A stretch of DNA of 64,000 bases from Patescibacteria group bacterium (GTDB lineage: Bacteria > Patescibacteriota > Minisyncoccia > Minisyncoccales > JAHCRE01), in contig JAHCRE010000016.1 of NCBI GenBank assembly GCA_020148145.1, positions 164,827-228,826 on the forward strand, in the 5' to 3' direction. The notes under the pieces were generated by a model. It ran no database searches, was not told where the DNA came from, and worked only from the letters and a program-made list of their open reading frames with translations. How positions within the stretch are numbered: the stretch's first letter is position 1; each line of letters starts with the position of its first letter. Positions 13,501 to 51,538 of the stretch are shown piece by piece. A program made the position numbers and the translations under genes.

Positions 13501-13537
13501 CCTAATAAGTATGACGGAAAAAATAGCCCTTTTATTA

Positions 13538-13566: not shown

Positions 13567-13675
13567 TTACAGTAAATTTACCCGGTAGAGCAACTTCGAC
13601 TTTCCCTTCCCAATAATTCTTGAATTCTCAGTCATACTTTGTGTTTTTCTTTTAGAAAAACACCTGTCGAAGTTG

Positions 13676-14176: not shown

Positions 14177-14203
14177 AACATTAGGTTAGGACATAATGTC
14201 CTA

Positions 14204-20810: not shown

Positions 20811-20941
20811 CTCCTTTTAAAAGAACAATATAGAAATATTAGCAAAATTAAAAAACTTGTCAAGTCAACCAAAACCCCGAGAAAAACACTCGGGGCGGAA
20901 ATAAAAAAAAGAGGCAAAAATAAGAGAGTTGCCTCTATTGT

Positions 20942-21677: not shown

Positions 21678-22121
21678 CTCCTTTTATTTTTAAAGAACGG
21701 TTTGGAGGTTCAAGGAATTGCACCTTGATTAATCTCAACTTGAGACCTCCACAAAATAAAAAACTAGCTCCTCAGTCTGAGGATCTAGTTTGATTTTATT
21801 ATTGATTAAGTTAGTATTCTAATTTTTCTAAATACAAACTCCCCAGACTAAGTTCTGCTAGTAAATTAACTGACATCATTTGTAAATTGTCTGAGAAGTT
21901 TCTCATATTACTAATTTTAGATGTTATATCAGAGAAGGTACCTTGTCAAGTCAAATCCAAAGAAAAACTCTCGGGGGCTGGCGGCTCCCCAGGGTGGACG
22001 TAATCAGAACTTGGTTTTGGGAGAGGTTTCCAACTCCAGAGATAGTAAAATTACCTACTACCACCCCATTTAAATAGGCGCCCAAACTACTCCTTTAAAA
22101 CTTTGTGTTTTTTAACAATTT

Positions 22122-23698: not shown

Positions 23699-23913
23699 AA
23701 TTTTTCTTTATTAAAATACTATATTTTTATTTTAGCAAAGGTTTCCCCAAAAAACAAAAACCCCGAGACTACAACCCACCCAAGGACGGGGCGTTTCGCT
23801 CTGCGAAAGCGCCTCGCGTCCCGACCACATCCTCCCGCCTTCGGCGGGCCCCTAAACTCTCGGGCGGACGGCGGAAATAAAAAAGAGGGTAGATTTTTTA
23901 ATACCACCCTTTT

Positions 23914-27243: not shown

Positions 27244-27516
27244 AAATTTTAGAGTTAAAAATCGAGGTCTTCGACCTTTTATTCTATTATACCTTAATTG
27301 CCCGCAAAACGAAAACCCCAAGACTACAACCCACCCACCACATCCTCCCGCCTTCGGCGGGCCCCTAAACTCTCGGGGGGTCCCGCAAGATGACTGCGTC
27401 ATCGCGGGACTCACTCAAAACGGCTTGCCACGAGATGGCGAAGCCATTTTTCGTGGCTCCCCCCCAACTGCACGTCATTCAAACCTGTTTAACAAAATAA
27501 AAGCTATTTCAATTAT

Positions 27517-28518: not shown

Positions 28519-28561
28519 ATAATTTTATTATTAAACTTACATTCCGACCTTTCGTTTCTAT

Positions 28562-28760
28562 TCTACCAAAAAACCGCCTTCTTGGCAATTAGAGACGGTG
28601 GGTCTACCCGAGAAAAACTCTTGGGCAGCGGCTCCGGCGGTAGGACTCGAACCCCTCTCGGTCGCCCTAGCGCTATAGGCGTCTCGGTCTCCAGAACGAG
28701 CTCACTGGCTCCGAGGGTGGGACGTAATCAGAACTTGGTTTTGGGAGAGATTTCCTTGTT
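28562..28760. repeat. GC-rich mosaic intergenic element containing a tRNA-3'-end-like ggctccggcggtaggactcgaaccc module and a gacgtaatcagaacttggttttgggagag module
   Basis: The 35-nt gacgtaatcagaacttggttttgggagag is shared exactly with 22001-22040; the tRNA-like module is shared with 35060 and 41680. Confidence 0.6.
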
Positions 28761-28860
28761 TAGAATCGATAAAATTGCCAATTTTAAGTTCTGTAAAATA
28801 AAAACAGCCTCAATATTAAATCAGGGCTGTTTTTAATTATTTTTCTAGGATACTACTCTC

Positions 28861-33728: not shown

Positions 33729-34919
33729 TTAAGGTAGTAAGTCAGCAATTATTGCGCTAGAAATCCCAGTGCTAAAGGGCCCACAATCAGAAGCAAAATA
33801 CACTCTCCACCCTTCTTCTATTTCGACCACACAAGGATCGGCGGTACCTACCTCCCTTCCTTCTTCATCAATGTATTTTCCAAAAAGAAAAGTTATGTTT
33901 GAAAAACTTAGGCCATCGGCTGAATCGGCGCTGTAAATCCCCTCCATCCCCTCTTCATCCATTTCTTGGCTTCCTGCCAAAAAATAAAGCCGGAAACTAC
34001 CATCAGAAAGTTTTACTATATCTGAAGTACCAATCATATTAGCAAACATGCCATAAAATAATGGTTTTGTACCATCTATTCTGATTCCTGGTTCTATTCC
34101 CCAGCTCAATCCGTCAGATGATATTGCGCTTTTTATTCGACACACGGGCGGAGTAGGAGGAGCAGGTTCATCACAATCCTGCAAATACATTCTATATCTC
34201 CCATCATCTAGCCTAATTACAGTAGGACCCACAAGATCAGTTACTAGCCGAAGACCCTCGACTTGAAAATTGAGTCCATCATTAGAAATAGCGGACTGTA
34301 TGCCACCTGAATTATAATACATTCGAAAGCGACCATCCGGCAACTCAATTACTGAAGGCATAGCATAGTTGAATCCTTCAGGTAGGCGAGTTCCTGGCTC
34401 AGAAGTCCAATTTAGTCCATCCGAGGAAATAGCACTAACGATATTTATGTTTTCAGGATAGGTTCGTGGGTCTAAACCGTAATACATCCTATATCTACCA
34501 TCAGGTAATTTTACAACTTCCGCATCGCAGTAACCACCAGGGATCACCACTCCCTCTATTGTCCAGACAGAAGGGAGTTTTTCTTTTTCTACTTCTACAA
34601 CTTCAACGCATTTATTTTCTTTACACTCGTAACCTGAAGGACAACTCTTACTCTTATATTGCTCATCAAAACAACACCCAAAAGGACACTCTAATTTTTC
34701 TTTAGACACTTCTTCTTCAAAAGCTACCTCTTCTTCCTCCTCTTCTTCAGGTAAAACCGCCTGCTCTTCCACTTGCTCTTCCGGAGCTTCTTTTTCCTCC
34801 TCGATTTTTTCTTTTTCAGCTTCGGGGAGGGAAATATTTTTCCAAACAAAAAACCCTCCTATACCGAAACCAATTAAAATTATTAAAGCAATTAAGATTT
34901 TAGTTTTCATCACTTCCAT
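33729..34919 (-). CDS. TM-anchored BNR/Asp-box repeat protein (sialidase-like beta-propeller fold)
   Basis: Repeats SAISSDGLNWTSEPG, SAISNDGLNFQVEG, SAISSDGLSWGIEPG and SADSADGLSF; acidic linker after the TM. The likely true start is the second Met (MKTK), which has a GGAAG Shine-Dalgarno-like sequence. Confidence 0.55.
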   Translation of the reverse strand: MEVMKTKILIALIILIGFGIGGFFVWKNISLPEAEKEKIEEEKEAPEEQVEEQAVLPEEEEEEEVAFEEEVSKEKLECPFGCCFDEQYKSKSCPSGYECKENKCVEVVEVEKEKLPSVWTIEGVVIPGGYCDAEVVKLPDGRYRMYYGLDPRTYPENINIVSAISSDGLNWTSEPGTRLPEGFNYAMPSVIELPDGRFRMYYNSGGIQSAISNDGLNFQVEGLRLVTDLVGPTVIRLDDGRYRMYLQDCDEPAPPTPPVCRIKSAISSDGLSWGIEPGIRIDGTKPLFYGMFANMIGTSDIVKLSDGSFRLYFLAGSQEMDEEGMEGIYSADSADGLSFSNITFLFGKYIDEEGREVGTADPCVVEIEEGWRVYFASDCGPFSTGISSAIIADLLP

Positions 34920-34924
34920 TCTAC

Positions 34925-35130
34925 TAAAAAACCGCCGAAATGGCGATTAATTATGGTAACTCAGCCCCGAACATGGTTCGATATCCTAGCGGGGTATGGG
35001 GATATTTTTTCTCGAACCTTTCAAAAATATGAGGCCTTTCGGTCTCCCGAAAGGTCTCACTAGCCTGCTCCGGGGGCAGGACTCGAACCCCTCTCGGTCG
35101 CCCTGTCAGGATAGGCGTCTCGATCTCTTA
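34925..35130. other. Conserved GC-rich structured leader-like element, copy A (about 130-nt core plus tRNA-3'-end-like module plus ctcggtcgccct module), ending in a terminator hairpin abutting the BNR gene start
   Basis: Alignable with 36783-36945 and 41545-41710. Contains ggttcgat...tctcgaac long-range stems and gcaggactcgaacccc. Confidence 0.7.
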
Positions 35131-35176
35131 AATTTATTTTTATGTAGTGATAACGAAACAGAAATAATTCGTCATT

Positions 35177-36765: not shown

Positions 36766-36782
36766 TTTTCTCTATTTTATCA

Positions 36783-36945
36783 AAAAATCGTCGCGATGAC
36801 GATTTTTTCTTTGTTCGGAAAAGTTCGATTTCCTAGCGGGGTAGGACGATATTGTCTCGAACTTTTTCTGAAAATAAGATGGGGCTCGGTCACTCGAACC
36901 GAGCACTAGCCTGCTCCCCCTATTGGACGCGTTCAGAACTATTGA
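36783..36945. other. Conserved GC-rich structured leader-like element, copy B, immediately upstream of the PHP phosphatase gene
   Basis: See copy A; the terminator-like hairpin cgtcgcgatgacg plus T-run lies 15 nt from the start codon. Confidence 0.7.
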
Positions 36946-37820: not shown

Positions 37821-37869
37821 CTTTCTACAAGTTGTTAATGCGCTACTTCTAAAATTATATCATTTCATT

Positions 37870-38010
37870 CAAAAAGTCAAGCCCCGAGAAAAACTCTCGG
37901 GGCGGGCGGCTCCCCAGGTCGGTCTGGAACCCAGATTTAAAGGGGAAATTAGGCGATTTTGAGAGTTCCAAATAACGCCCCTCGGTCGGGGCGTTTTTTC
38001 GAAAAATGAG
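37870..38010. repeat. GC-rich mosaic intergenic element (ccccgagaaaaactctcgggg terminator module plus ggtctggaaccc...aggggaaattagg module plus gcccctcggtcggggcgtttttt terminator)
   Basis: Homologous to 38535-38625 and shares modules with the 20.4-24.3 kb and 28.6 kb islands. Confidence 0.6.
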
Positions 38011-38037
38011 ACGAAGGAAAGAGTATAAAGAAATAAA

Positions 38038-38451: not shown

Positions 38452-38459
38452 ATCTTTTA

Positions 38460-38700
38460 TTCTACCAAAAAACCGCCTCTGAGGCGATTTTTGCATGTGG
38501 CCACTCGGTCGCCCTGACGCCTAGGGCCCCTCGGTCTCATGCTCCCCTAGTTGGTCTCGAACCTACGGTTTAAGGGGAAAATTAGGGCTTTTTGAGGGTG
38601 TCCCACAATGCGTCTCGGTCGGGGTGTTTTAAAGCTAAAATGAGACAAATGAGACACTACTTTAGGGTATTTTTAGTGTCTCGTTTTGAATGATTTTCTC
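38460..38700. repeat. GC-rich mosaic intergenic element (tctaccaaaaaaccgcc module plus ctcggtcgccct-N-ctcggtctc module plus ggtctcgaacc...aaggggaaaattagg module)
   Basis: Its modules recur at 28562, 28650, 35090 and 37920. Confidence 0.6.
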
Positions 38701-38768: not shown

Positions 38769-41033
38769 TCAAAATATGCGCTTGGTCTCGTATTTAATAT
38801 TTTTGCAATGTTTTATTTTCTTTAAAAAACTACTCCATTCATCTTTTGTTATTTCTTTTTTCAAAATATGTTTTATATCCATTAAAGGACTATTATTATA
38901 TGAAAATAAATCATTTTCTAAATCATGAATTTCTTTGCATAATTGAAATTTATCGGGCCCCATTAAATTTTTTACTTTTCGCTTTAATTTAAAATATTCT
39001 TTGTTAAGTTCCAGATATTTTTTATTTAGTTTATCTATTTTAGCAACAATACCTTTTTCCTGGTCGGTTCTTTTGTATTTGTGTAAAAATAACCCTAAAT
39101 AAACTAACTTCTCTATTACCCTGGGATGATTATATCCATATCCAAGGTCCACCTTCTCAAAATGTTGTTCTATTAACCTAATATATAAATCTATCAAATG
39201 CTCTACGTCAAAAATCTTATTCTTAAAATTATAACTAATCTCTCTTAATAAAATTTCTAAAACTTGCTCAAGATTAAATAAGAAACTACTTTTTATTTTA
39301 TCTGTTTTTTGAAAATACCAACTCAGCGTATGAAACTGGGTTTTGTATATTTTTTCCAAATCTGTATCGCTAAATTTACTTCTAATTCCATAAATAATCC
39401 TTAAATTATTATCTACCGATTGAATAATTGATAACCCAATTTGTTTATTTTCCAACCCTATATCCCTTGCAAAATCAAGAAGGAAATCACTCCATCTTTT
39501 TAATAATTGTATAAATTTATCTAAATTTTCTTTCTTTTCTTTTTTCTCCTTTATTTTAATGAGCCAATTTATAATATTTACTTGCCACGTATGAAAATTA
39601 ATGAATAAATCACTAATTGACAAACTAAGTCTGCTTGTCATAGATAATAATAAAATTTTTTTCTTTAATTCTTTAAACAAATTTTCCCAAAAAATATCAT
39701 TGTGTTCATACCTATTCCAAGCAATCCGGATCTGATTGAGGTAAATATTTATGAGTTCTTTTAAAAATGTTTCTTTATTGTCTGCAAGACAAAATATAGA
39801 AATTTTATTTATCACTTGATTTATTTGACTATATATAAAATAATTGTCGGTTTTCTGTAATATAAAATTTGATACATTAGATACAGATTTGATAGATTCC
39901 CAAACCCAGTCGTTCTCTTTTGACTCCAATAACTTTTCAATAAATCCTATATAATATGCTGATATTAAATTTAATAATGGATTTTCTTTATAAGCGCCTA
40001 AATTTTTATCGGCATATTTTATATTTAATGAATAACTTAAAATGCTTTCGTAAGCTTCTAGTAAAAAATAAATGTTTTCTTTTCTTTTTTCCTGAATAAT
40101 CCTATTGCCCATTGATTGCAAGTATTCAAGTATTTTGGCTGTAAATCCCTCGTCATCAAAAGAATAAGTTCCCCAAAAAGATGCGGGCATTCTAATAAAA
40201 TATCCGTTTCTCAAGTTTAAATGCTTTAAATATATGTCGTGAATGTATTTTACAGTTAAATTAAAAGAATTTATCTCATTTTTTGCTAATAATCTTAGGC
40301 CTATCTCAAATAGATATTTGACGTTTTCTAATGTAATTAAATGCCAATTACGATTTATTTTATATTGCACATCTAAAGAAAAATCTTTATTTTCTTTTTT
40401 GTATTCAAAAATTTTATTTTGAATATACGCATGTTTTTTTAATTCTTTATTTATTCTTTCTAATTGCTTTATGGCGTCTGTTTTAATTTTTGTTAAAGTT
40501 GTTTCTGGATTTATTCTTTTTCTTAATTCTTTATAGAGACTATAAATAAAGTAAAACGCGACAAATAAAGTAATGACCAATATTTCTAATACATATTTTT
40601 TAAGCAAAATAGGTGTAAAAAAAGACACTATCGTCAAAAACACCAACGACCAAAAGAATATTTTTTCCTTAGGGTCCTTAATGAATTTATTTAAATACTG
40701 AGTAGAAAATAAATCAGCCGTGCTCTGTAAAATAAAGGTTGAAAAAGAAAATATAATAGCAATTGACGCTCCAATAATTCCGGCAGTAGCAAATGCAAAA
40801 CTATATAAATTACCCTCTGAGATAGTTAAATTTAAGTAAATTAAAATCTTGTGTAAAAAAAATACGAAAACACCAAAAAATATAAAATAAAAAAAGATAG
40901 AGTCAATAAATTTTTTTATTTTCTCTCCCAAAAAATGCCATTTATTATTAAGATATTGTTTAGATTTGTAGAAATATAAAAATCCTCTCTGTTTTAAATT
41001 AAATTCTTCTTTCTTTGATTGTTTTTTCGCCAT
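38769..41033 (-). CDS. Large hypothetical membrane protein: about 4 N-terminal TM helices plus a ~550-aa helical cytoplasmic domain, extremely AT-rich
   Basis: 754 aa; strong K/N/I/F/Y bias; GC is markedly lower than the surrounding genes; no recognisable catalytic motif. Confidence 0.5.
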   Translation of the reverse strand: MAKKQSKKEEFNLKQRGFLYFYKSKQYLNNKWHFLGEKIKKFIDSIFFYFIFFGVFVFFLHKILIYLNLTISEGNLYSFAFATAGIIGASIAIIFSFSTFILQSTADLFSTQYLNKFIKDPKEKIFFWSLVFLTIVSFFTPILLKKYVLEILVITLFVAFYFIYSLYKELRKRINPETTLTKIKTDAIKQLERINKELKKHAYIQNKIFEYKKENKDFSLDVQYKINRNWHLITLENVKYLFEIGLRLLAKNEINSFNLTVKYIHDIYLKHLNLRNGYFIRMPASFWGTYSFDDEGFTAKILEYLQSMGNRIIQEKRKENIYFLLEAYESILSYSLNIKYADKNLGAYKENPLLNLISAYYIGFIEKLLESKENDWVWESIKSVSNVSNFILQKTDNYFIYSQINQVINKISIFCLADNKETFLKELINIYLNQIRIAWNRYEHNDIFWENLFKELKKKILLLSMTSRLSLSISDLFINFHTWQVNIINWLIKIKEKKEKKENLDKFIQLLKRWSDFLLDFARDIGLENKQIGLSIIQSVDNNLRIIYGIRSKFSDTDLEKIYKTQFHTLSWYFQKTDKIKSSFLFNLEQVLEILLREISYNFKNKIFDVEHLIDLYIRLIEQHFEKVDLGYGYNHPRVIEKLVYLGLFLHKYKRTDQEKGIVAKIDKLNKKYLELNKEYFKLKRKVKNLMGPDKFQLCKEIHDLENDLFSYNNSPLMDIKHILKKEITKDEWSSFLKKIKHCKNIKYETKRIF

Positions 41034-41057
41034 GTTAATTTCAATTTATTAATTTAA

Positions 41058-41240
41058 CTAAATCTTTTTCTTCTTTGATTTATATCTTTGAGGGCTTATT
41101 CTCCTATCGACTTTGAGGAGTAAATCAAAAAATCCAAAAATAACTGTTAAGCCTCCAATTATGGCTAAAATATCTTTTATTGAAAATTTTTCTATTAATG
41201 GAAAGCTCATATTCCCGTGATACAGTTCGGATTCGAACAA
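41058..41240 (-). CDS. Small single-TM protein
   Basis: 60 aa; overlaps the upstream Zn-ribbon gene by 34 nt, suggesting translational coupling within the operon. Confidence 0.3.
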   Translation of the reverse strand: MFESELYHGNMSFPLIEKFSIKDILAIIGGLTVIFGFFDLLLKVDRRISPQRYKSKKKKI

Positions 41241-41464
41241 ATTATTTTAATTTTTCCATCCTTAACTAAAATTGCTCCGAGATTATCAAGATCAATAACC
41301 GTACTACAATTTAAACACCGGTAGTCGCCATCTTTAAGTTGTTCTAAAACTCCCAGAGAACTTAATAGTTTTAATAAGTCACTCTCATGAACTGCCTTTA
41401 CCTTCGTTTTCTTAAATTTATAGGGAAATGCCCTTATATAAGCTGTAAGTTTATGCCAAAACAT
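41207..41464 (-). CDS. Small zinc-ribbon protein (CxxC...CxxxxC)
   Basis: 85 aa with CLNCSTVIDLD...IICSNPNC. Confidence 0.35.
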   Translation of the reverse strand: MFWHKLTAYIRAFPYKFKKTKVKAVHESDLLKLLSSLGVLEQLKDGDYRCLNCSTVIDLDNLGAILVKDGKIKIICSNPNCITGI

Positions 41465-41544
41465 TTAATTAGTCTTTTTATGGATAAGATTTATCTACTT
41501 TCAAAATAACCTCTTTTTTGAGAAAGTTCAAGATAAAAAACAAA

Positions 41545-41710
41545 AAACGCTTTTCCCTTAGTGGACGAAAGCGATTTTTTTGTTCGTGAAAGTTCGATGT
41601 CCAGTCAGGGTACGGCGATTGTTTCTCGAATTTTTTCCAAAATTAAGTGGGAATCGGTCTCTCGAACCGAGCTCAAGCTGGCTCCGGCGGCAGGACTCGA
41701 ACCCAAACAA
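41545..41710. other. Conserved GC-rich structured leader-like element, copy C, upstream of the AT-rich three-gene operon
   Basis: See copies A and B; ends in gctccggcggcaggactcgaaccc. Confidence 0.7.
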
Positions 41711-41718
41711 CAAAAATC

Positions 41719-42441
41719 TTAGAAGCCGAGGAATTCCCTGATTTTTTTGATGGAAATGGCTGAAACTTTTCCCTCTCTGTCAATTTGATTTAATCCAACT
41801 ACCTGACCTTCAATATTGAATAATGGACTTCCTTCAAGAATCTTTTTTTCAGAAATATTAGTTCGAACGGAATTTTCATCAAAGGTTTTAATAATACCCT
41901 CGTTTACTATTTTTTTTGGGATTCCTTGTTCAAAGATTACACCTAACAAAAAAATTCTCTCTCCTAACTTTATTTTTTCTAAATCGGCAAAGCCCACAGT
42001 GGGTAAATTAGTTTTCTCAATTTTTACTAAAGCTAAATTCTCCTTTAAGTCTCTTTTTAAAACTTGAAAATGGACTATTTCTCCATCAACAAAAAAACTA
42101 AAAGTAGAACTACTGGGAACTAAATTAGCTAAAGTAACCAAGAGACCATCAGAAGTAACAATTAGGCCAGAGCCTTCTAAAATTTCTCCTGCCTTTGTCT
42201 TTGTTTTTACTCCGGCCACCACCTTTTCTACTTTTTCAATAGCATTAATTAAGGCAACATTTTCCTGAATTATGATTTCTTTTCTTTCGGTGACATAAAC
42301 TGGTGATTGCTCAAGTCGATATTGATAAAAAAGTGGCCTTTCGATAAAATAAGGCCATAAAATTTGATCAGCAAAGATTCCTCCGACTGTTCCAATTATA
42401 AAAATGGCTAATATTTTAAGAATATTTTTGACCATTATCAC
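41719..42441 (-). CDS. TM-anchored trypsin-like (S1/HtrA-like, possibly degenerate) peptidase domain protein
   Basis: GSGLIVTSDGLLVT and EGSPLFNIEGQVVGLN resemble the HtrA His-region and GNSGGPL Ser-region, but the match is imperfect. Confidence 0.4.
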   Translation of the reverse strand: MIMVKNILKILAIFIIGTVGGIFADQILWPYFIERPLFYQYRLEQSPVYVTERKEIIIQENVALINAIEKVEKVVAGVKTKTKAGEILEGSGLIVTSDGLLVTLANLVPSSSTFSFFVDGEIVHFQVLKRDLKENLALVKIEKTNLPTVGFADLEKIKLGERIFLLGVIFEQGIPKKIVNEGIIKTFDENSVRTNISEKKILEGSPLFNIEGQVVGLNQIDREGKVSAISIKKIREFLGF

Positions 42442-45197
42442 ACCTGAGCTTTTTCTAATTTTCTTTGTTTTGAGATTTTAACTAAGTCACTAGGTGTTCT
42501 AAAAACAATCTTTTCCTCCTCTACGTCAACAATAACTTTCTCTCCTTTTTTAACTAAACCTGAGACAATTTTTAAAGAAAGGGGATCTAAAATTAATCTC
42601 TGAATGACTCTTTTTAAAGGTCTGGCTCCCAAATTTGGGTCAAAACCTTTTTTGGCTAAAAATTCTTTAGCTGAATTTTCAAATTTAATTTTGATTTTTT
42701 TATTTTCTAATCTTTTTCTAACTTTTTCTAACTCTAACTCAACAATTTTTTTAATTTCCGATTTACCAAGATAATTAAAGATAATAATTTCATCAACCCT
42801 ATTTAAAAATTCTGGCCTAAAATTATCCTTTAGGGCTTCCATTACTTTTTCCTTTAAAGAAAGTTTTGCCTCTTCCTCTTTTTCTCCCAAAAATCCAAGA
42901 GATCCCATCTTAGCAATGTGTTCAGATCCAATATTTGAAGTCATAATCAAAATTGCATTTTTAAAAGAGGCTATCCTACCCTTGGCATCAGTTAACCTAC
43001 CATCCTCGAAAATCTGAAGTAAAATATTAAAAACTTCGGGATGGGCTTTTTCAATCTCATCGAGTAAGATTACGCTATAAGGTCTTCTTCGAATTTTTTC
43101 AGTTAGTTGCCCTCCCTCTTCATAACCAATATAGCCGGGAGGCGATCCAATCATTTTAGAAACTGTATGCTTTTCCATATATTCTGACATATCTAATCTA
43201 ACCAAGGCATTTTCATCATTGAATAAAAATTCAGCTAAAGCCCTAGCTGTCTCAGTTTTTCCTACTCCGGTTGGCCCCAAAAACATGAATGAACCCAGAG
43301 GCCTTTTTTCTTCAGAGATACCAACTCTTGATCTTCGAATAGCATTGGAAATTGCTGAAATTGCTTCTCTCTGGCCTATAACTCTTTTTGAAAGAATCTC
43401 TTCCATTTTTTTCAATTTTTTAACTTCCTCTTCTAAAAGCCGGGTTATTGGAATTCCTGTCCAACGGGAGACAACCTGAGCAACATCTTCTTCTAATACT
43501 TCTTCTTTTAGAATTGGCCGAGTTTTTTGGAATCTGGCTAATTTTTTCTCGGTTGTTTTAAGTTCTTTTAAAAGACGGGGTATTTCTCCATATTTTATCT
43601 CGGCCACTTTTTGTAAATTAGCTTCCTGACCAGCCTTTTCTGCCTGGTATTTCAACTCCTCAATCTTTTTTTTGAGATTTTTAATTTTGGTAATAATTTC
43701 CTTTTCTGACTTCCATCTGGCTTCGAGGGCCTGGGCTTTTTCTTTTAAATCAGCCAGTTGACGAGAAATTACTCTTAACCTCTTTTGAGAACCCTTTACT
43801 CCTTCTTTTTTAAGGGCCTCTCTTTCAATCTCTAATTTTTGAATTTCCCTTTTTAAATCATCGAGTTGGCTAGGCTCTGACTCAATTTCTAATCTCAAAG
43901 CCGACATAGCTTCATCCATTAAATCAACTGCCTTATCAGGTAAAAATCTATCGGTAATATAACGAGCAGCCAACTCAGCTGCTGCCACCAAGGCTGAATC
44001 TCTAATTTTTACCCCGTGATGAAGTTCGTATTTTTCTTTAATTCCGCGCAAAATAGCAATTGTATCCTCGATTGTCGGTTCTTGAACATAAATTGGCTGA
44101 AATCTTCTCTCTAGAGCGGGATCTCTTTCAATATATTTTTGATATTCTTTCAAAGTTGTTGCTCCAATTGCCTTTAATTCTCCTCTAGCTAAAGCTGGTT
44201 TCAATAAATTTGAGGCATCAATTGCTCCTTCAGCTGCTCCTGCCCCTACTAAAGTATGGAGTTCATCGATAAATACAATATATTTACCAGCTGCCCGATT
44301 GATTTCTTTAAGCAGGGCTTTAACTCTGTTTTCAAATTCTCCTCGATATTTTGTCCCCGCTACTAGGGCTCCCAAATCTAAACCAATAATTTCTTTTTCT
44401 TTTATGCTTTCGGGAACATCTCCTCTGACGATTCTCTGGGCCAGACCTTCAACAATAGCTGTTTTACCAACCCCAGCCTCACCAATCAAAACAGGATTAT
44501 TTTTTGTCCTGCGAGATAAGACCTGCATCAATCTTCTAATTTCATTTTCCCGACCAATAACCGGATCTAATTTCCCCTGCCTGGCTAGAGAAGTCAAATT
44601 GCGGGCATATTTTTCAATTACCTGATATTTTGATTCAGGATGAGGGTCAGTAATCCTCTGGCCTCCCCGGATTTTAGCCAAAGTTTTTAAGACAGTCTCG
44701 TAATTTAATTTACCAAATTCCAAAGTGGACGGGCCTCCACTAGGTCGTAAAAAGGTGGCTTTATCTAAAATCTCTTTTGCCTTAGTTTCAATATTAAGAA
44801 GAGCTAAAAATAAATGCTCAACTGAAATAAACTCATCACCCATTTTCATTGATTCTTTTCTTGCTCTTTCCAAGACTCTGGCCATATCCTGGGTTAAATA
44901 AAACTGACCAAGAACCTGAGGAGAGATTATTGCCGGAATTTTATCTAAAGCTAACTTTGTTTTCCGCTTCAGACTTTCAATATCTGCCCCCAATTTCTCC
45001 AACATAGTTAAAACCACGCTTCCTTCCTGAGAAAGTAAGGCGTAAAGAAGATGCAAGGCATCAATTTGTTGCTGTCCTTTTTCCTGAGCAATCCTTTGGG
45101 CCTGAAGTATTGCTCCTTGAGCTTTGTGAGTAAAATTACCGCCTGTAATCATATTATTTGTCAATTTCTTTTTACTATAAGATTTTAAAAAAAACAA
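42438..45197 (-). CDS. clpB: ATP-dependent chaperone ClpB (two AAA+ modules plus middle coiled-coil)
   Basis: Walker A GEAGVGKT and GPTGVGKT, the long coiled-coil M-domain, and the C-terminal D2 small domain. The true start is probably the internal MITGG. Confidence 0.9.
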   Translation of the reverse strand: MFFLKSYSKKKLTNNMITGGNFTHKAQGAILQAQRIAQEKGQQQIDALHLLYALLSQEGSVVLTMLEKLGADIESLKRKTKLALDKIPAIISPQVLGQFYLTQDMARVLERARKESMKMGDEFISVEHLFLALLNIETKAKEILDKATFLRPSGGPSTLEFGKLNYETVLKTLAKIRGGQRITDPHPESKYQVIEKYARNLTSLARQGKLDPVIGRENEIRRLMQVLSRRTKNNPVLIGEAGVGKTAIVEGLAQRIVRGDVPESIKEKEIIGLDLGALVAGTKYRGEFENRVKALLKEINRAAGKYIVFIDELHTLVGAGAAEGAIDASNLLKPALARGELKAIGATTLKEYQKYIERDPALERRFQPIYVQEPTIEDTIAILRGIKEKYELHHGVKIRDSALVAAAELAARYITDRFLPDKAVDLMDEAMSALRLEIESEPSQLDDLKREIQKLEIEREALKKEGVKGSQKRLRVISRQLADLKEKAQALEARWKSEKEIITKIKNLKKKIEELKYQAEKAGQEANLQKVAEIKYGEIPRLLKELKTTEKKLARFQKTRPILKEEVLEEDVAQVVSRWTGIPITRLLEEEVKKLKKMEEILSKRVIGQREAISAISNAIRRSRVGISEEKRPLGSFMFLGPTGVGKTETARALAEFLFNDENALVRLDMSEYMEKHTVSKMIGSPPGYIGYEEGGQLTEKIRRRPYSVILLDEIEKAHPEVFNILLQIFEDGRLTDAKGRIASFKNAILIMTSNIGSEHIAKMGSLGFLGEKEEEAKLSLKEKVMEALKDNFRPEFLNRVDEIIIFNYLGKSEIKKIVELELEKVRKRLENKKIKIKFENSAKEFLAKKGFDPNLGARPLKRVIQRLILDPLSLKIVSGLVKKGEKVIVDVEEEKIVFRTPSDLVKISKQRKLEKAQV

Positions 45198-45466
45198 GTG
45201 TCAAGCTAAATAAAAAAGGAGAGGAAGGAAGAAATCTTTCAATAGATTTTTCCTCACTCTCCATGAAGGATCGAGCTACTTCGGGCTTTTGCTCGAAGTT
45301 AAGCCACGATTTAACTTAAGATCAGAAAAAAGGGGAGATGGAGGGAAAAGGGAGGTAAGAGTTCTTGTTCTGCCCTTACTTTCCTTATCTTTAATTTTTG
45401 TAAAGGAGGTACAATTACCTCTTTAGGAGACTCAGTCTCGACCTTGCCTTTTTCCCTGTTTTCCTC

Positions 45467-45664
45467 TTACTTGCCGAAGGTTTCGTCAAGAAGCTCTTCA
45501 ATGATGATTCTTCCGAATTCCTTCAACTCATCAAGAGAAATTCCGGTAGCTTTGGCTACATTACCCAGTTCTCTCTTAAAGTCCGGGCCCAGTCGGAGAT
45601 TTGAGCGAGCCATCCGGTACTTCAGGAGAATTAAGGCAATCTCGCCTTTTCTTTTCTCATCCAA
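45467..45664 (-). CDS. Small hypothetical protein with a strong promoter and Shine-Dalgarno-like sequence (possible TTG start)
   Basis: The reverse complement shows TTGACA-17-TATACT, then GGAGG 8 nt before TTG. The encoded sequence is ...RSNLRLGPDFKRELGNVAKATGISLDELKEFGRIIIEELLDETFGK. Confidence 0.35.
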   Translation of the reverse strand: MDEKRKGEIALILLKYRMARSNLRLGPDFKRELGNVAKATGISLDELKEFGRIIIEELLDETFGK

Positions 45665-45689
45665 GAAATTCACCTCCTTTTTTCTTTCT

Positions 45690-45722
45690 ATCTTAAGTAT
45701 AGCAAACAAATTTATCTTTGTC
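45690..45722 (-). promoter_or_regulatory. Sigma-70 consensus-like promoter TTGACA-17-TATACT
   Basis: Reverse complement reads cgtacTTGACAaagataaatttgtttgcTATACTtaag. Confidence 0.55.
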
Positions 45723-45779
45723 AAGTACGACAAAAAAAACCGAGGCTTCACCTCGGAAAAATCCTTAAGCGAGAAAAGT

Positions 45780-45960
45780 AATTTTTAGGATAAAATTAAG
45801 TGAGGTAGCTGCTGACAAGGACGCCTCGGAGGCCAAGCGGCCATGGTTCTGCCGAAGGCAGAGAGCGAGGCCAAGAGACGAGCAGCAGTCGTCTCGGTGG
45901 GACGACTGACTGCGTGCCTTGGAAGCAGTCTACCGAACGATGTTCTATTCGCTTCTCTCA
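45780..45960. ncRNA. GC-rich (about 60%) structured island, candidate small ncRNA of unknown identity
   Basis: Multiple hairpins (agacgagcagcagtcgtct; ctgccgaaggcag), no ORF support, and weak partial resemblance to SRP RNA domain IV (ggaagcagtc). Confidence 0.25.
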
Positions 45961-47243
45961 CCCAAAGTTGCCTCAATGGTTTTTTCTTCACCATTCCTTA
46001 AAATCTTCAAAATCACTTTATCTCCAGGATTATATTTCATAATGATTTTGGCTAGAGAATTTTCAGGAGTAATTTTTTCATTGTTGAATTCTAAAAGAAT
46101 ATCATTTTCTTTTAAGCCAACTTCTTCAGCTGCTGAACCAGGGAAAATAGCTGGCTCTCCCCTTTCCCCTTTTTTAATCCAAACTCCATAATTTACTGGT
46201 AAATCATTTTCTCTCTGGATTCCATCGGTAATTAAAATGTATCTTATTCCCAAAAATGGATAGACAATTTTTCCCAAAGTTTTTACCTGTTCAATTGCCC
46301 TTTTTGCCTTATTTATTGGAACGGCAAAGCCAATATTTTCTGCTCCTAAGGCCATAGCCGTATTTATTCCAATTACCTCTCCTTTTAAATTCAAGAGTGG
46401 TCCCCCTGAATTTCCTTTATTAATAGCGGCATCAGTCTGAATTACATCTTCTAAAATCTCAACCAATCCCCCACCCGAAGCCGTAACTGTTCTTCCTAAT
46501 CCAGAGATTACTCCTACTGAAACAGTATTTTTAAATTCTCCTAAGGCATTACCAATAGCAATGACCGTTTGGCCAATTTGTAAATTTGAAGAATCATCAA
46601 GGCCAACCGTCGAGAAATCTCCTCCCTCAATTTTAATTATAGCCAAATCCTGTCCAGGATCTCTGGCTAAAACCTTAGCTTCAAAAGACCTTCCATCATT
46701 AGTCAAAACAGTATATTCTGCTTCTTTATCTTCAACCACATGTCGGTTTGTCAAAATCATTCCCTCTTCAGAAACAATAAAACCGCTCCCTCCGCCGATT
46801 TCTTTTTTCTCAATTCTTTGACGATACTGAGGAATCTGAAAGGGTTCTTCTTCAAAAGGTTTAATATAATATTTTTCAATTACGGGAAGATTCTTAGTAA
46901 TAACTATACTGACTACTGCCGAGGAAACCTCTTTTACCACCCCGATAATAGCCTGTTCTTGGTTTGTCTGAGGAAGATATTCCTTTTCTTTAACAATTTC
47001 CCTTTCGATTATTTTTGGTTCAGGTAATTCAACGTTTAATTTTTGGAAAAAATTCTTTATCTCAAGGTAAAAATGGCCAAGAGAGAAGATACCGGCCAAA
47101 AAACCAAAAAGGGAGGAGATAAAAATAATCAAAATCAAGAGCCAGAAAATTCGCTTCGCTCCCAAGGCCTTTGGCTGAGGTTCACTCAGGGTTTTTTTCT
47201 CCTCCTTAGGGCCTAAAAATTTTGAAGATTCAGAATTTAACAT
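45945..47243 (-). CDS. htrA: HtrA/DegP family serine protease with PDZ domain, N-terminal TM anchor
   Basis: TNRHVV (His), catalytic Asp region, GNSGGPLLN (Ser), and a C-terminal PDZ. Confidence 0.85.
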   Translation of the reverse strand: MLNSESSKFLGPKEEKKTLSEPQPKALGAKRIFWLLILIIFISSLFGFLAGIFSLGHFYLEIKNFFQKLNVELPEPKIIEREIVKEKEYLPQTNQEQAIIGVVKEVSSAVVSIVITKNLPVIEKYYIKPFEEEPFQIPQYRQRIEKKEIGGGSGFIVSEEGMILTNRHVVEDKEAEYTVLTNDGRSFEAKVLARDPGQDLAIIKIEGGDFSTVGLDDSSNLQIGQTVIAIGNALGEFKNTVSVGVISGLGRTVTASGGGLVEILEDVIQTDAAINKGNSGGPLLNLKGEVIGINTAMALGAENIGFAVPINKAKRAIEQVKTLGKIVYPFLGIRYILITDGIQRENDLPVNYGVWIKKGERGEPAIFPGSAAEEVGLKENDILLEFNNEKITPENSLAKIIMKYNPGDKVILKILRNGEEKTIEATLGERSE

Positions 47244-47304
47244 TTAATGTGAATTGTTTCTCTCGCTTTTTTAATATAATTTATTTAAAAAAAGGTAAAG
47301 AATC

Positions 47305-47676
47305 TCAAAAATATGGTAAAAAAATTAAAATCCCAATTATTAAAGCTCCTAGACAAGCCAATAAAACGGCGCCAGCTGAAATATCTTTAATTTCTTTTAT
47401 TTTTGGATTGTAATGAGGCATTAAAATATTTAAAACTTTTTCTATCTGAGTATTAATAAGTTCTAAGGCTAAAACTAAAGCAATCAGAGAAATTAAAATT
47501 TCTTTTTCAATCAAAGTGACTTTAAAATAAAACATTAAGAATATGATAAAAGAAGCAATAAAAACCATCATTTTAAAGGTTTGTTCCTTGAGAGCTAATT
47601 TCAATCCCAAAAAAGCTGTTTCTAGGCTATTTAATAATTTTTTGAAATCTAAAATTTTCATAATGCCCGAACTCAT
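47305..47676 (-). CDS. dgkA: Diacylglycerol/undecaprenol kinase (DgkA family)
   Basis: 123 aa, 3 TM, ELINTQIE (cf. ELLNTAIE). Confidence 0.65.
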   Translation of the reverse strand: MSSGIMKILDFKKLLNSLETAFLGLKLALKEQTFKMMVFIASFIIFLMFYFKVTLIEKEILISLIALVLALELINTQIEKVLNILMPHYNPKIKEIKDISAGAVLLACLGALIIGILIFLPYF

Positions 47677-48352
47677 ATTTAAAAATATCTTTTTTTATAT
47701 CACCAAAAATTATCATATAGAGCTCGGCTAAAACATATTTTAAATAAGTTTTTACCCAGCCATCTTCTTCAAATCTCCGCAAAGAACTAAAAATTTTTGT
47801 CGATCTTAAAATTCCAAATTTTCCAATTTTTTTTGCCCTTCTGACGAAATTGTGGTCTTCAGCAAACTTTATTTTTTCATCAAATCCTCCTAATTTCTGG
47901 TAAACATCTTTTTTGACTAAGATTGCTTGACTGGCGTGAGCTAGATTCTTTTCAAAAATTAAGATTGGCCAGTTATAAAAAATATTAAATAAAAATTTCT
48001 GAGTCTTTCTTTTAGATTGAGAGTCTAAACAGAGGGAGGCTATGTCTAAATTTCTTTCTCTGAATTCTTTTAATACCCTTTCAATAAACTTTTTCGGTAA
48101 AACAACATCGGCATCTAAAAATAAAAGTAAATCTCCCCGGGCAATTTTTGCTCCTTTATTTCTTCCAATAGCGGACAGTCCACCTTTAATAATTTTACAA
48201 CCATAAGCTTTAGCAATCTCTACTGTTTTATCTTTAGATTGAGCATCGGCAATGATTATCTCTAGGTTTTTAAAATTTTGGTCTTTAATAGACTCAAGCA
48301 ACAAGGGAAGAAATTTTTCTTCATTTAAAGTTGGAATGATAATTGAAAGCAT
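47627..48352 (-). CDS. Family 2 glycosyltransferase
   Basis: MLSIIIPTLNEEKFLPLLLESI...DADVV (DxD). Confidence 0.8.
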   Translation of the reverse strand: MLSIIIPTLNEEKFLPLLLESIKDQNFKNLEIIIADAQSKDKTVEIAKAYGCKIIKGGLSAIGRNKGAKIARGDLLLFLDADVVLPKKFIERVLKEFRERNLDIASLCLDSQSKRKTQKFLFNIFYNWPILIFEKNLAHASQAILVKKDVYQKLGGFDEKIKFAEDHNFVRRAKKIGKFGILRSTKIFSSLRRFEEDGWVKTYLKYVLAELYMIIFGDIKKDIFKYEFGHYENFRFQKIIK

Positions 48353-48355
48353 ATT

Positions 48356-49366
48356 TTATTGAATAAATAATTTTTTGGCTTCGTTCCAAATCTCTGGTCG
48401 GCTTTGTTTTACTTTCATCCAGTGCCACCATTCTCCTCCCCATAAATAAAACTTTTTTAAACCGGTTTTTTTAGCAAATTCAATATTCTTTTTAAATTGT
48501 TCTAAATTCATTGTCTTTTCTTGCTCTGAAATTGGTGAGTCATAAAGTAAAGCTGGCCCCCAGGGTTCAGCCTGAAGTTCAATACAAATTACATCTTTTT
48601 TGAATAATTTTTTAATAATCTGAGCCTTTCTCCAATAAAAAACTGGTGGGAAGGGATAGCGAATATAGATACCAACTTGGCGAAACCAGACTTTTTCATA
48701 CATGGTTGTACCAACAATATCGCCAAATATGGCTGCCTGAATCCAAAAAGAGCCTTCACCACTATCTGTAATAACAATTGGTCGATTTTTTGAATCAATT
48801 GATTTTACCAGATTTATTTCTTTTTTCAAAAATTTTTTATCAACCCAGGGGCAGTTTCCAAAGGGAAAAAAAGGTTCATTTTCTATCTGCCAAGCCCAAA
48901 TTGCCTCTGAATCTTTGTATCTCAAAACAGCTTTTTTAAGCATTCTCAAAATCTTCTCTTGTTGCTTTTCTTTACCTAAATTTACTGCCCATTCAGGGAT
49001 ATGACATTCTGGCCAGCGAGGGGTTTTCATACCAATTACTAAAAGAATTCTAACTTCTCTTTTTTCTGCCTCTTTAATTTGCCAATCTAAATCTTCGAAA
49101 TAAAATTTCCCATCTTCTGGTTCAATTAAATCCCAGTGAGCAGCCACTTTCAAGTCTTTAGTGCCCAAATCATCAATTAGGGCTGAATAAGTTTCTTTCC
49201 AATCTAAACCTAAATTTTTAGCGTGCTTTTGGGAAAAATTAACTCCCCAGGTTATTTCTTCTGCCACCGGGGCTGTACCAATAAAAAAATAGCCAAAAAA
49301 AATCAAAAGTAAAAATAGTAAAATTAATAAAATTCTTTTTAAAACTTTTTTAAAATCTAGCCCCAT
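48356..49366 (-). CDS. TM-anchored TIM-barrel glycoside hydrolase (GH5/GH113-like)
   Basis: WQIENEPF (catalytic NEP motif) and the conserved GWGEWWHW-type C-terminal region. Confidence 0.5.
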   Translation of the reverse strand: MGLDFKKVLKRILLILLFLLLIFFGYFFIGTAPVAEEITWGVNFSQKHAKNLGLDWKETYSALIDDLGTKDLKVAAHWDLIEPEDGKFYFEDLDWQIKEAEKREVRILLVIGMKTPRWPECHIPEWAVNLGKEKQQEKILRMLKKAVLRYKDSEAIWAWQIENEPFFPFGNCPWVDKKFLKKEINLVKSIDSKNRPIVITDSGEGSFWIQAAIFGDIVGTTMYEKVWFRQVGIYIRYPFPPVFYWRKAQIIKKLFKKDVICIELQAEPWGPALLYDSPISEQEKTMNLEQFKKNIEFAKKTGLKKFYLWGGEWWHWMKVKQSRPEIWNEAKKLFIQ

Positions 49367-49413
49367 ATTACCTATGGACCGCGATTTCTACGATCGTAGA
49401 AATCGCGGTCCCT

Positions 49414-50316
49414 TCAGAATTTAGCTAAAATTGCCAGACCAATTCCAATAAATAAAATTGCTAGGATTTTTTGGAAAAGAATTTTTCTTGAGACCTCTTC
49501 TTTCAAGATCTGAGGGAATTTTAAGGAGATTAAAATAGTAAATATTAACAAAAATATATATTTTGTTCCTTCTAAGGCATTAATAAAAGCAAGGAGCCCT
49601 ACGGGAACTAAAGCAATCGCCCAATTTTGTAAAGCAAAAGCTAAAGCTCCAGCGCCCTGGCTAGTAAGAAAAATCTCAGCAGTCTTTAGTTTAAAACTAG
49701 TTTGCTTCTGAAACAGTTCCTCCCTTACGTCCTTTGAGAAAAGAAAAACTAAGGCCGCCAAAAACCCTCCAATCCTCATCCAGATAAATCCTGACCAAAA
49801 TGGTTGTTGTAGATAAACGCGTTTAGTTAGAACAAAGGCTAAAGAAAATAAAAAGGCAGACACAGCAGAAATTTTAAAACTTTCCAAAGAAGCAGTTTTT
49901 CTCTTTTCCCGAGTGATAATTACGCTTCCTAAAATGAGCAGGATAAAAGACAGAAGTTCCCAAAAACCTGGAAATCCTTTTCCAGAAAAAAGATAGTTTA
50001 AAACAAAAACAAACAAGGGGCTCAACCCACCAATTGCTGGTACTACCCGGGATGCCTCAAAAAGAGTCAGGGCTTTACAAAACCAAAGAAGAGCCCAAAT
50101 AAAAATTGCCCCCGCTAAAAGGCTTACTAGGATTTGCGAGAAATTAGGAACTAAGAAACCCAAAGGAAAAAACAATAAGGCCAGAATTCCTAAAACTCCT
50201 GTATAAAATGAATAAACTTTGGGATTTGGAATAGGCCCTGCTAAAAGATACTTATCCATTACAGTAGCGATGGCCGAAAAAAGATAACCTAAAATAGCAA
50301 TAAAAATCCACAACAT
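49414..50316 (-). CDS. DMT-superfamily (EamA-like) permease
   Basis: 300 aa, about 10 TM helices in two repeated halves. Confidence 0.5.
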   Translation of the reverse strand: MLWIFIAILGYLFSAIATVMDKYLLAGPIPNPKVYSFYTGVLGILALLFFPLGFLVPNFSQILVSLLAGAIFIWALLWFCKALTLFEASRVVPAIGGLSPLFVFVLNYLFSGKGFPGFWELLSFILLILGSVIITREKRKTASLESFKISAVSAFLFSLAFVLTKRVYLQQPFWSGFIWMRIGGFLAALVFLFSKDVREELFQKQTSFKLKTAEIFLTSQGAGALAFALQNWAIALVPVGLLAFINALEGTKYIFLLIFTILISLKFPQILKEEVSRKILFQKILAILFIGIGLAILAKF

Positions 50317-50320
50317 AAAA

Positions 50321-51538
50321 TTAATTATTAAGGATTAAGGTGTTTTGTTTACAGATTTGGGCGTAATAGAAAGCTGAGGGACGAGGCTTACGTTCCAGGG
50401 TCCTGTAATCGATTTCAATTAAGCCAAATTTTGGTTCAAAACCTTTTTCCCACTCAAAATTATCCATTAAAGACCAGTGAAAATAGCCCCGAACATCAAT
50501 CCCTTCAGAAATCGCTCTATGAATCCAATATAAATGATCCCTAATAAAATCTTTCCTTAATCTATCTTCAGCATCGGCTAAGCCATTTTCAGTAATATAA
50601 ATCGGGAGATTGTATTTTTTCAATTCTTTTAGAACATGATAAATTCCTTGAGGATAAATCTGCCAACCAATGTCACTCAGTTTTATTTCACCTCTAGACT
50701 TGTTTGGAAATGAAATTCCGACTCTTTCCCGAGAATAATAATTTAAACCAATAAAATCTAAATGGTTTTTGATTCTATTCAAGAAAAAATAACTCCAAAA
50801 ATAACGATAAATTATAGCGTTGAATATGTCTAAAGGAGATTTAGGATTAAATGGTTGGAAATAATTATTATTTTTAGCTATCCCCATCCGAATATTCCTT
50901 TTTGATTTATGAAAAACTTCATAAACTTTCTTATGGCAGGCAATTTGATTCCTCACTACTTTTAAAAACAATATTGGATTTTTTTTCTTCGGGGGCCCGC
51001 CCTTAGGGCGAGGCTCGCCTTTTGGCAGTAAGCCAAAAGGTGGCCACCTTCCCTCCCAATAAGAAAGAGAAGTATAAACTAAGGGTTCATTAATTGTTAT
51101 CCAAAAATCAACTAAATCACGGTACTCATCAAAGACTCTTTTGGCAAATCTTGAGAAATGAAAAATGATTTTTGAGTTAGTCCAGCCTCCAATCCTTGCA
51201 AGCCACAGGGGATTGGTAAAATGATGTAAAGTTACCATTGTCTTGATATTCCTTTCTCTCAAGGCGAACAAAACTTTTTTGTAATGTTCAATTTCTTTTT
51301 TATTAAATTTCCCTTCTCTCGGTTCAACTCTTGACCACTCAATTGAAAAACGATAGGCATTCTGATTTAATTTTTTTATCAAATCAAAATCTTTTTCGTA
51401 AAGATTATAATGATCGCAGGCTCGGCCTGCCGGAAAATCTTTTGACCAATCACTATTTTCAATTCCACCTTCAACTTGATAGGCAGAAGTGGCTGTTGCC
51501 CAGAGAAAATTTTGGGGGAATTTTAGAATCTCTGTCAT
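50321..51538 (-). CDS. GH1 beta-glucosidase/beta-galactosidase
   Basis: FLWATATSAYQVEGG N-terminal signature and YITENG nucleophile motif; TLHHF...NEP acid/base region. Confidence 0.85.
   Translation of the reverse strand: MTEILKFPQNFLWATATSAYQVEGGIENSDWSKDFPAGRACDHYNLYEKDFDLIKKLNQNAYRFSIEWSRVEPREGKFNKKEIEHYKKVLFALRERNIKTMVTLHHFTNPLWLARIGGWTNSKIIFHFSRFAKRVFDEYRDLVDFWITINEPLVYTSLSYWEGRWPPFGLLPKGEPRPKGGPPKKKNPILFLKVVRNQIACHKKVYEVFHKSKRNIRMGIAKNNNYFQPFNPKSPLDIFNAIIYRYFWSYFFLNRIKNHLDFIGLNYYSRERVGISFPNKSRGEIKLSDIGWQIYPQGIYHVLKELKKYNLPIYITENGLADAEDRLRKDFIRDHLYWIHRAISEGIDVRGYFHWSLMDNFEWEKGFEPKFGLIEIDYRTLERKPRPSAFYYAQICKQNTLILNN

Follow-up and report, generated by a model that had tools for sequence, protein, structure and literature searches.

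The segment examined here covers positions 38769–41464 of a 64,000-nucleotide stretch of DNA from a Patescibacteria metagenome-assembled genome (MAG); the whole stretch is referred to as the window. Its largest gene encodes a 754-aa predicted membrane protein. Four features were placed within the segment, comprising three open reading frames (ORFs) and one candidate leader; labels of the form L### denote loci compared with the window, P#### denote related proteins, and TM stands for transmembrane.

38769..41033, minus strand: 754-aa ORF (KJA15_03070, MBZ9572285.1, annotated "hypothetical protein"); conserved and, judging from locus comparisons, mobile unit
41207..41464, minus strand: 85-aa Zn-ribbon-like ORF (KJA15_03080) with the pattern C50xxC53...C76xxxxC81; an orphan of host-like composition
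41058..41210, minus strand: small ORF KJA15_03075, 50 aa (60 aa if read from a TTG at 41240), with a single TM helix predicted
41034..41138, minus strand: leader candidate of the 754-aa gene, ~105 nt, with blastn similarity to L002 and partly to L010

In the source annotation of the MAG, KJA15_03080, KJA15_03075 (50 aa) and KJA15_03070 are all entered as hypothetical proteins, and searches with the 85-aa, 50/60-aa and 754-aa proteins returned nothing usable in Pfam, PADLOC, PHROGs or NCBIfam. An initial annotation, made from the letters alone, had described the segment as a compositionally foreign three-gene operon, on the ground that the ORFs overlap or abut. The layout itself is as described: all three ORFs lie on the minus strand, the stop codon of the 85-aa ORF overlaps the start of the 50-aa ORF in a 4-nt ATGA, a gap of 24 nt precedes the 754-aa gene, and an independent assembly of a sequencing run (L123) has the identical arrangement. 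The module did not survive comparison with the 93 other loci that carry a homolog of the 754-aa gene, in which the small ORFs never accompany the large one. The Zn-ribbon ORF has no tblastn match in these loci, and the small TM ORF matches over its final 27 codons alone, in one locus (L002), where a stop codon interrupts the frame of the equivalent of its 3′ half, making that DNA non-coding there. The 85-aa protein is its own sole match in 5.8 billion clusters, both small proteins form singleton clusters among ~15 billion proteins, and no small conserved partner gene was found upstream or downstream of homologs. At one locus, L109, an 80%-identical homolog is preceded, at ~185 nt, by a 70-aa CxxC...CxxC ORF (985–1197); the sequence of this ORF is unrelated to the window Zn-ribbon ORF, and this single case may be coincidence.

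A conserved system in which a large effector works with a small TM partner and with a Zn-ribbon protein as regulator or sensor could draw on the ATGA overlap and 24-nt gap of this genome and on the ORF of L109, but is scarcely credible given two singleton proteins, no tblastn support in the 93 loci, directly upstream genes that differ in nearly every locus, and a 50-aa ORF whose 3′ half is non-coding DNA in L002. Judged by these comparisons, the unit is the 754-aa gene alone and the three-gene module is not conserved. The Zn-ribbon and 50-aa ORFs are lineage-specific additions, possibly co-transcribed with the large gene, and the status of the 50-aa ORF as a real gene is uncertain. The DNA at 41034–41138, which overlaps the 3′ half of the small ORF, has conserved counterparts before the large gene in L002 and, in part, L010; this conservation and the interrupted frame in L002 argue for a leader or promoter rather than coding sequence, probably the 754-aa gene's own.

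Predicted architecture and relatives of the 754-aa protein

The 754-aa protein has 205 full-length homologs of near-invariant length at 58–91% identity, matches 179 clusters among 1.84 billion cluster representatives, and belongs to a wider family of 750–850-aa proteins with ~20–25% identity over the full length. The ratio of nonsynonymous to synonymous substitution rates (dN/dS) is 0.10–0.21 against five relatives, similar in the TM and solenoid parts, and this purifying selection marks the gene as real and functional. Three parts of the protein were delimited as follows (AF2, AlphaFold2).

40536..40910, minus strand: codons of residues 42–166, four TM helices, from hydropathy, charge bias and AF2 helices
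40674..40793, minus strand: codons of residues 81–120, TM2 plus juxtamembrane segment GIIGASIAIIFSFSTFILQSTADLFSTQYLNKF, one of two conservation peaks
38772..40520, minus strand: codons of residues 172–754, predicted cytoplasmic all-alpha solenoid, HEAT/ARM-like, without catalytic motif

Hydropathy places the TM helices at residues 42–60, 84–102, 125–143 and 148–166, and the K/R-rich N-terminus that precedes them predicts an N-in topology with a cytoplasmic C-terminal domain. The AF2 model, computed from a 42-sequence alignment, is all-alpha (pLDDT 83.6, pTM 0.75), and Foldseek comparison gave generic HEAT/ARM-like matches only, at identities of 4–15% and a TM-score of at most 0.26. Hydropathy and model thus agree with the earlier description of about four N-terminal TM helices followed by a helical cytoplasmic domain, and the protein is predicted to consist of a four-helix membrane anchor and a ~580-aa cytoplasmic alpha-solenoid. 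The same description had named neither an enzymatic motif nor a family, and searches of Pfam, PADLOC, PHROGs, NCBIfam and PDB sequences bear this out: there was no match in Pfam, NCBIfam or PADLOC, nothing in a PDB sequence-profile search, and a best PHROGs match of only E 0.078. HEAT/ARM solenoids such as the PP2A A subunit, symplekin, TOG domains and designed helical repeats share the repeat architecture only, and unlike the 754-aa protein none of those matched is anchored by an N-terminal four-TM bundle; the modelled likeness is one of fold class, implying neither homology nor shared function.

Conservation is concentrated away from the N-terminal end. The most conserved stretches are residues 81–120 and 241–260, with a mean conservation of 0.93–0.94 for residues 81–120 versus 0.55–0.62 for residues 1–80, and conservation is lowest in the N-terminal tail and TM1. 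Even members with 17–20% identity keep G88, A92, I93, F95 and Q103 in the TM2 region, and likewise P176, D293, N351, P352, R638, K652 and F736.

The closest named family is DUF2254 (PF10011/IPR018723), which would share the N-terminal four-helix membrane module with the 754-aa family; its 368-position profile has its own C-terminal domain, in place of which the 754-aa protein has the ~580-aa solenoid. The window protein itself has no match to PF10011 at E≤1, and among the close homologs listed, 16 of 120 carry precomputed PF10011.16 matches. Distant members align with profile positions ~5–167 (in one case to 217) at E 1e-5 to 0.035, and P0124, P0131, P0156, P0160 and P0170 score 13–25 bits, under the gathering score of 28.8. 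Since the gathering score is not reached and the matches span only the membrane part of the profile, the family cannot be assigned to DUF2254, and a distant kinship of the membrane module is likely. The link brings no mechanism with it because DUF2254 is itself uncharacterised; in the literature it figures in a protein-knot survey only, with no function given (PMC11184937). The label "Ca2+/Na+ antiporter", which the Joint Genome Institute (JGI) attaches to some homologs, was rejected, with no Na_Ca_ex match at E≤1 and only 4 TM helices versus ~10. The literature yielded no published description of the 754-aa family. A functional screen reported the Patescibacteria-restricted defence genes of unknown fold ldgA and ddgA (PMC12366544). 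With LdgA and DdgA known here by description only, and with neither an entry in PADLOC v2 nor a describing paper, the family appears to be new.

Accessory status, mobility and base composition

The window was compared with 28 syntenic loci from related Patescibacteria (Nealsonbacteria/Paceibacteria-like), in which the protease gene p240, upstream of the segment, is 50–79% identical and up to 8 kb of downstream DNA is covered, less at contig ends. ClpB is kept upstream of p240 in all of these loci but one short contig, and no homolog of the large gene was found downstream of p240 in any of the 28, so that it is not a core gene at a syntenic position in the related loci examined. Relatives with enough sequence have p240 followed, after 2.3–7 kb, by homologs of the window genes at 14.8–9.2 kb (synteny blocks 9186–14806 and 41719–51538, the latter the ClpB–p240 block). 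Because relatives join ClpB–p240 to these genes, the intervening 27 kb of the window (14.8–41.7 kb) are non-syntenic, with the segment studied here at their edge, and by this comparison form a lineage-specific or rearranged variable region.

Across the 93 loci with homologs, 67 distinct neighbourhoods were distinguished, and synonymous divergence (dS) between the window gene and copies in unrelated contexts is only 0.23–0.46. The MAGs that carry homologs are labelled Komeilibacteria, Levybacteria, Caldisericia, Elusimicrobiota and WS2, and a distant branch is found in Deltaproteobacteria. The "Caldisericia" contig L002 also bears a 150-nt intergenic element of the window, which suggests possible mis-binning, and in L008 a Clp ATPase is 41–46% identical to its counterpart versus 61% for the large gene, a comparison of uncertain orthology that we treat as a hint only. 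Because bin labels can be wrong, we claim horizontal mobility and not cross-phylum transfer. DNA similarity breaks off at different points in different loci, so no transposable unit can be defined. The gene's absence from the syntenic site in relatives, its patchy occurrence and its many neighbourhoods indicate that it is accessory and horizontally mobile, in keeping with the acquisition first proposed for it.

Base composition had been offered as a further sign of foreign origin, and here the observation stands and the interpretation does not. The two 1-kb bins covering 39001–41000 have GC contents of 0.252 and 0.245, the lowest two of the 64 in the window (mean 0.357, sd 0.042; z about −2.7 to −3), and K, N, I, F and Y together make up 45.5% of the 754-aa protein versus an average of 32.5% for window genes. 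The anomaly lies mainly in the first two codon positions: GC1 is 0.293 and GC2 0.217 (z −2.3 and −2.2 versus window genes), and GC3, at 0.228 versus 0.279, is not an outlier (z −1.0), which means that the AT richness is mostly a matter of protein composition rather than foreign codon usage. The 85-aa ORF is compositionally ordinary, with GC1–3 inside the host range. Furthermore, AT content is higher in the homolog than around it in 37 of the 37 non-redundant loci with enough flanking DNA (mean GC 0.289 versus 0.370), and its GC tracks that of the flanks across loci (r = 0.75). Since homologs are AT-rich everywhere yet track host GC, low GC alone is no proof of recent foreign origin; it should be read as an amino-acid-composition trait of the protein in every host and not as a signature of recent transfer. 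A missing Shine-Dalgarno motif was also considered as a sign of foreignness and rejected, as such a motif precedes only 8 of 55 window genes.

Neighbourhoods of homologs and proposed function

To describe the company that the gene keeps, the 150 nearest neighbours of homologs in 60 non-redundant loci were assigned to families. The census is headed by N6_N4_Mtase (12), ResIII (7) and serine recombinase domains (5–7), followed by GmrSD_N (5), HNH (5), SWI2_SNF2 (4) and Peptidase_S24 (4), with N6_Mtase, D12, HSDR_N, Eco57I, SLFN_AlbA_2, EcoRI methylase, Tsp45I, HpaII and AIPR in the lower ranks; a PADLOC census of the neighbours likewise has methyltransferase (MTase) models on top. In a control set of 148 ORFs from Patescibacteria ClpB loci, the census-top families are not among the 25 commonest. 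On this qualitative comparison, the neighbourhoods look like those expected of a defence-island gene under guilt by association. Pfam and PHROGs gave no match for recurrent neighbours of 199, 111, 222, 467 and 314 aa.

Individual loci illustrate the range of partners. A helix-turn-helix (HTH)–EcoRI methylase–GmrSD(HNH) set abuts the homolog in two loci, and a type I restriction–modification (RM) operon with AbiTii and ThsB_TIR lies beside it in another. Single loci have GmrSD–SLFN_AlbA_2, AbiTii with a T4 coupling protein, a Bsp6I/C5-methylase pair with CBASS (SAVED/SMODS) nearby, and a diversity-generating retroelement (reverse transcriptase with bAvd) together with a serine recombinase. The distant branch follows the same pattern: a 24%-identical deltaproteobacterial protein is encoded 76 nt after HsdM–HsdS–RhuM–HsdR and before an HTH–SocA_Panacea gene, and another distant member adjoins HxsD/radical-SAM genes, a nuclease and a coupling protein. 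Of 54 loci, 41 have an upstream gene on the strand of the homolog, and in 25 that gene overlaps the homolog or lies at most 30 nt away, an arrangement suggesting that the 754-aa gene typically forms the tail of another operon. Hallmarks of integrative elements recur as well: of 67 locus groups, 21 have a large serine recombinase within ~6 kb and 8 have terminase genes (TerL phrog_38, E 2.6e-77) with ParB-methylases, and S24/LexA-like repressors and HTH_3 proteins are repeatedly found near homologs.

The reading that we tentatively favour, and rate a little short of an even chance, is that the 754-aa protein is a solitary mobile conflict protein of a new family, acting in phage defence or exclusion; for any specific mechanism, whether depolarisation or a block to entry, our confidence is lower. 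We infer the defence role and the assignment of sensor and effector parts from gene neighbourhood. Under this proposal, the product would be an inner-membrane protein whose N-terminus and solenoid face the cytoplasm, held in place by the four-helix bundle. The gene would spread horizontally among Patescibacteria and other uncultured bacteria as cargo of RM/defence islands and of integrative elements with serine recombinases, among them prophage-like ones, and would usually come to lie last in whichever operon receives it. The solenoid may be the platform that binds, and so recognises, a component derived from the invader, and the conserved polar TM2/juxtamembrane segment may execute the response at the membrane, either as an ion leak with depolarisation of the abortive-infection (Abi) type or by blocking DNA entry. 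A more specific version is doubtful, though conceivable: the protein would found a single-gene anti-phage family, largely of Patescibacteria and other uncultured bacteria, that combines a membrane-anchored alpha-solenoid as sensor with a fused four-helix membrane effector of DUF2254 type and is carried as a promoter-less add-on 3′ of restriction operons and in prophage accessory regions.

Known systems offer analogies at several levels. Membrane components of anti-phage systems, such as RexB of lambda RexAB, KwaA of Kiwa and the TM effectors of CBASS, Pycsar and retrons, are likewise multi-pass and sit among defence genes; the presumed common denominator, abortive infection or exclusion at the membrane, is an analogy with no PADLOC sequence match behind it. 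The 4-TM SjdB, a membrane component of the "San Juan" anti-phage system (PMC12366544), belongs in this group. Systems of the RexB/KwaA/SjdB type are multi-gene or signal-activated, whereas the 754-aa protein is solitary and has a large cytoplasmic domain of its own. Few immune genes are known in Patescibacteria (the candidate phyla radiation), whose genomes are tiny and mostly lack CRISPR, and for which only one phage has been described (PMC12366544). The family, a strongly conserved and mobile single-gene membrane protein found in the regular company of restriction systems and integrative elements, is put forward as a concrete defence candidate. If a defence phenotype were borne out, it would represent a new effector architecture, a membrane bundle and solenoid without an enzyme, and give the first functional handle on the DUF2254-like membrane module; even without a phenotype, the family marks gene-flux hot spots in these genomes.

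Several observations weigh against this proposal. The initial annotation had suggested a defence-type membrane effector, and the RM, defence and mobile-element neighbourhoods of homologs speak for that idea, whereas a match to a known defence family is lacking: none of the 5027 PADLOC-DB v2 models is hit at E≤1 by any of the three proteins. No specific structural relative of the 754-aa protein was found, and no effector chemistry is visible in it. In the lack of any defence-model, family or specific structural match, the functional reading rests on guilt by association, and the changing partner genes offer no conserved operon from which a mechanism could be deduced. The neighbour enrichment is qualitative, the control set being syntenic and redundant. 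The labels Caldisericia, Elusimicrobiota and WS2 are MAG bins that may be wrong. The window copy is not inside a defence island: its neighbours are of a housekeeping kind, namely p240 (a trypsin/HtrA-like protease), ClpB, a 2-thiouracil desulfurase, PHP and Menorin, and the only RM-like gene among the scanned window genes lies 20 kb off. That gene, at 18286–19557 on the minus strand, encodes a 423-aa N6_N4 DNA methyltransferase–Mrr_cat fusion.

The alternative that survives best, although unlikely in our view, is that the gene is prophage or integrative-element cargo (a "moron") that brings about superinfection exclusion or an entry block at the membrane without cell death. It accounts for the predicted membrane location, the recurring S24/LexA-like and HTH_3 regulators, and the recombinase and TerS/TerL–ParB-MTase associations counted above. 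Terminase pairs with a ParB–N6_N4 methylase were seen a few kb from the homolog in L003, L007/L079, L089, L091, L097, L098, L100, L101 and L119; these loci, usually with a large serine recombinase, resemble prophage-like elements that hold the gene as cargo. Many other loci are RM islands without element hallmarks, however, and the family is almost absent from catalogued viral contigs, with a single match in 2.9 million IMG/VR contigs and none by tblastn among 50,697 phage and 72,556 plasmid records; the distant relative P0147 gave no match in the plasmid records either. P22 SieA and lactococcal Sie2009, two superinfection-exclusion (Sie) proteins, share the membrane location, and some 754-aa loci lie beside recombinase and terminase genes, but the 754-aa protein is far larger and has no homology to them. 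To our knowledge, Sie proteins are small and none has a 580-aa solenoid.

Less likely again is an ordinary membrane protein, such as a transporter, channel or envelope scaffold, that occupies variable genome regions by chance. The relation of the membrane module to the widespread, uncharacterised DUF2254, the host-like GC3, the gene GC that follows the flanks, the housekeeping neighbours in the window and the JGI antiporter label on some homologs all fit such a protein. It is harder to reconcile with a mere four TM helices and no transporter-family match at E≤1, with a patchy distribution that leaves the syntenic site in relatives empty, and with neighbourhoods that are dominated by RM, defence and recombinase genes, unlike the control.

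A shade more improbable is an accessory or back-up of restriction systems, transcribed together with RM operons from their 3′ end, that would either tether restriction to the membrane or the site of DNA entry or form a second line when restriction is inhibited, as in the logic of PrrC. The position of the gene invites the comparison, given the same-strand and closely spaced upstream genes, upstream partners that are often MTases, GmrSD-HNH or ResIII nucleases, and a distant branch that likewise follows a type I RM operon. RM-embedded Abi genes (PrrC with EcoprrI; AbiTii and RhuM in type I RM loci) share this placement inside or at the end of RM operons. The partners of the 754-aa gene, however, belong to RM types I, II, III and IV or are absent, as in the window, which makes a specific physical RM partnership unlikely, and the protein has no recognisable nuclease, ATPase or RM-binding domain.

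Flanking repeats and intergenic elements

Non-coding repeats lie on both sides of the three ORFs, as first described, and three of them were mapped in detail.

38455..38489, minus strand: hairpin and T-run, then GGTAGAAT 7 nt before the 2-thiouracil-desulfurase ATG; "leader" repeat family D8, terminator-like
38541..38700, minus strand: ~150-nt non-coding element directly downstream of the large gene, ending in a tRNA-3′-like piece at 38536–38564
41540..41718, minus strand: GC-rich mosaic repeat between p240 and the Zn-ribbon ORF; families D7, D14 and D17; tRNA-3′-like piece at 41676–41704

Their proposed role as boundaries of an acquired island did not hold up: repeats of this kind are found in most gaps between 14.8 and 41.7 kb, and the tRNA-like piece behind p240 also occurs in the relative L015, a short contig without a homolog of the large gene, so the repeats delimit no inserted element. 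Nor are the tRNA-3′-like pieces attachment-site remnants, given this p240-side copy and the lack of tRNA genes. A tRNA-targeted island was rejected, with no tRNA gene in the window or 22 related loci and relaxed ARAGORN output amounting to noise; the two flanking pieces are only 62% alike to the repeat-family reference. An integron cassette array was rejected too: with cores defined as R''(RYYYAAC)...R'(GTTRRRY) downstream of an ORF, 0 attC-core pairs were found in 18 gaps (5.6 kb) against 0.76 expected, in a search that did not screen for an integrase.

GC-rich mosaic repeats built of shared modules occupy nearly all minus-strand intergenic gaps of window 14800–41720, for example 14853–15027, 16282–16456, 20862–20919, 21983–22055, 23821–23867, 27334–27380, 28556–28780, 34914–35127, 36770–36917, 37869–37932, 38455–38564 and 41592–41704, and one module resembles a tRNA T-arm and acceptor 3′ end (GGGTTCGAGTCCTGCCGCCGGAGC). 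The repeat at 41540–41718 folds no better than shuffled sequences. Rfam returned nothing at gathering thresholds; a sub-threshold Moco riboswitch match at 35001–35137 on the minus strand (21.9 bits versus a gathering score of 36, E 0.12) coincides with a mosaic repeat and is probably due to chance. A promoter and terminator scan gave no excess over shuffled expectation.

The 150-nt element at 38541–38700 has a folding z-score of −2.4 and no tRNA or Rfam match. It consists of a hairpin GAGACACTA...TAGTGTCTC, then CCCCGACCGAGA...GGTTCGAGACC...GGGGAG, with copies 74–78% identical. Copies also stand behind the large gene in the two closest loci (L010 7622–7767 and L011 5339–5435) and away from it at L002 12418–12571 and window 37909–38018; the element would be either a mobile element or a sign of mis-binning.

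The "leader" repeat occurs four times in the window (28556–28590, 34914–34948, 36770–36804 and 38455–38489), each a hairpin set between A- and T-runs, after which (G/A)GTAGAAT or GATAAAAT comes only 0–8 nt before the ATG of the next gene. The copy at 38455–38489 belongs to the next gene, the 2-thiouracil desulfurase (PF04463), and not to the three ORFs. In sequence, the repeat resembles a terminator joined to a −10 box that would serve leaderless mRNAs, a reading that fits the scarcity of Shine-Dalgarno motifs among the window genes.

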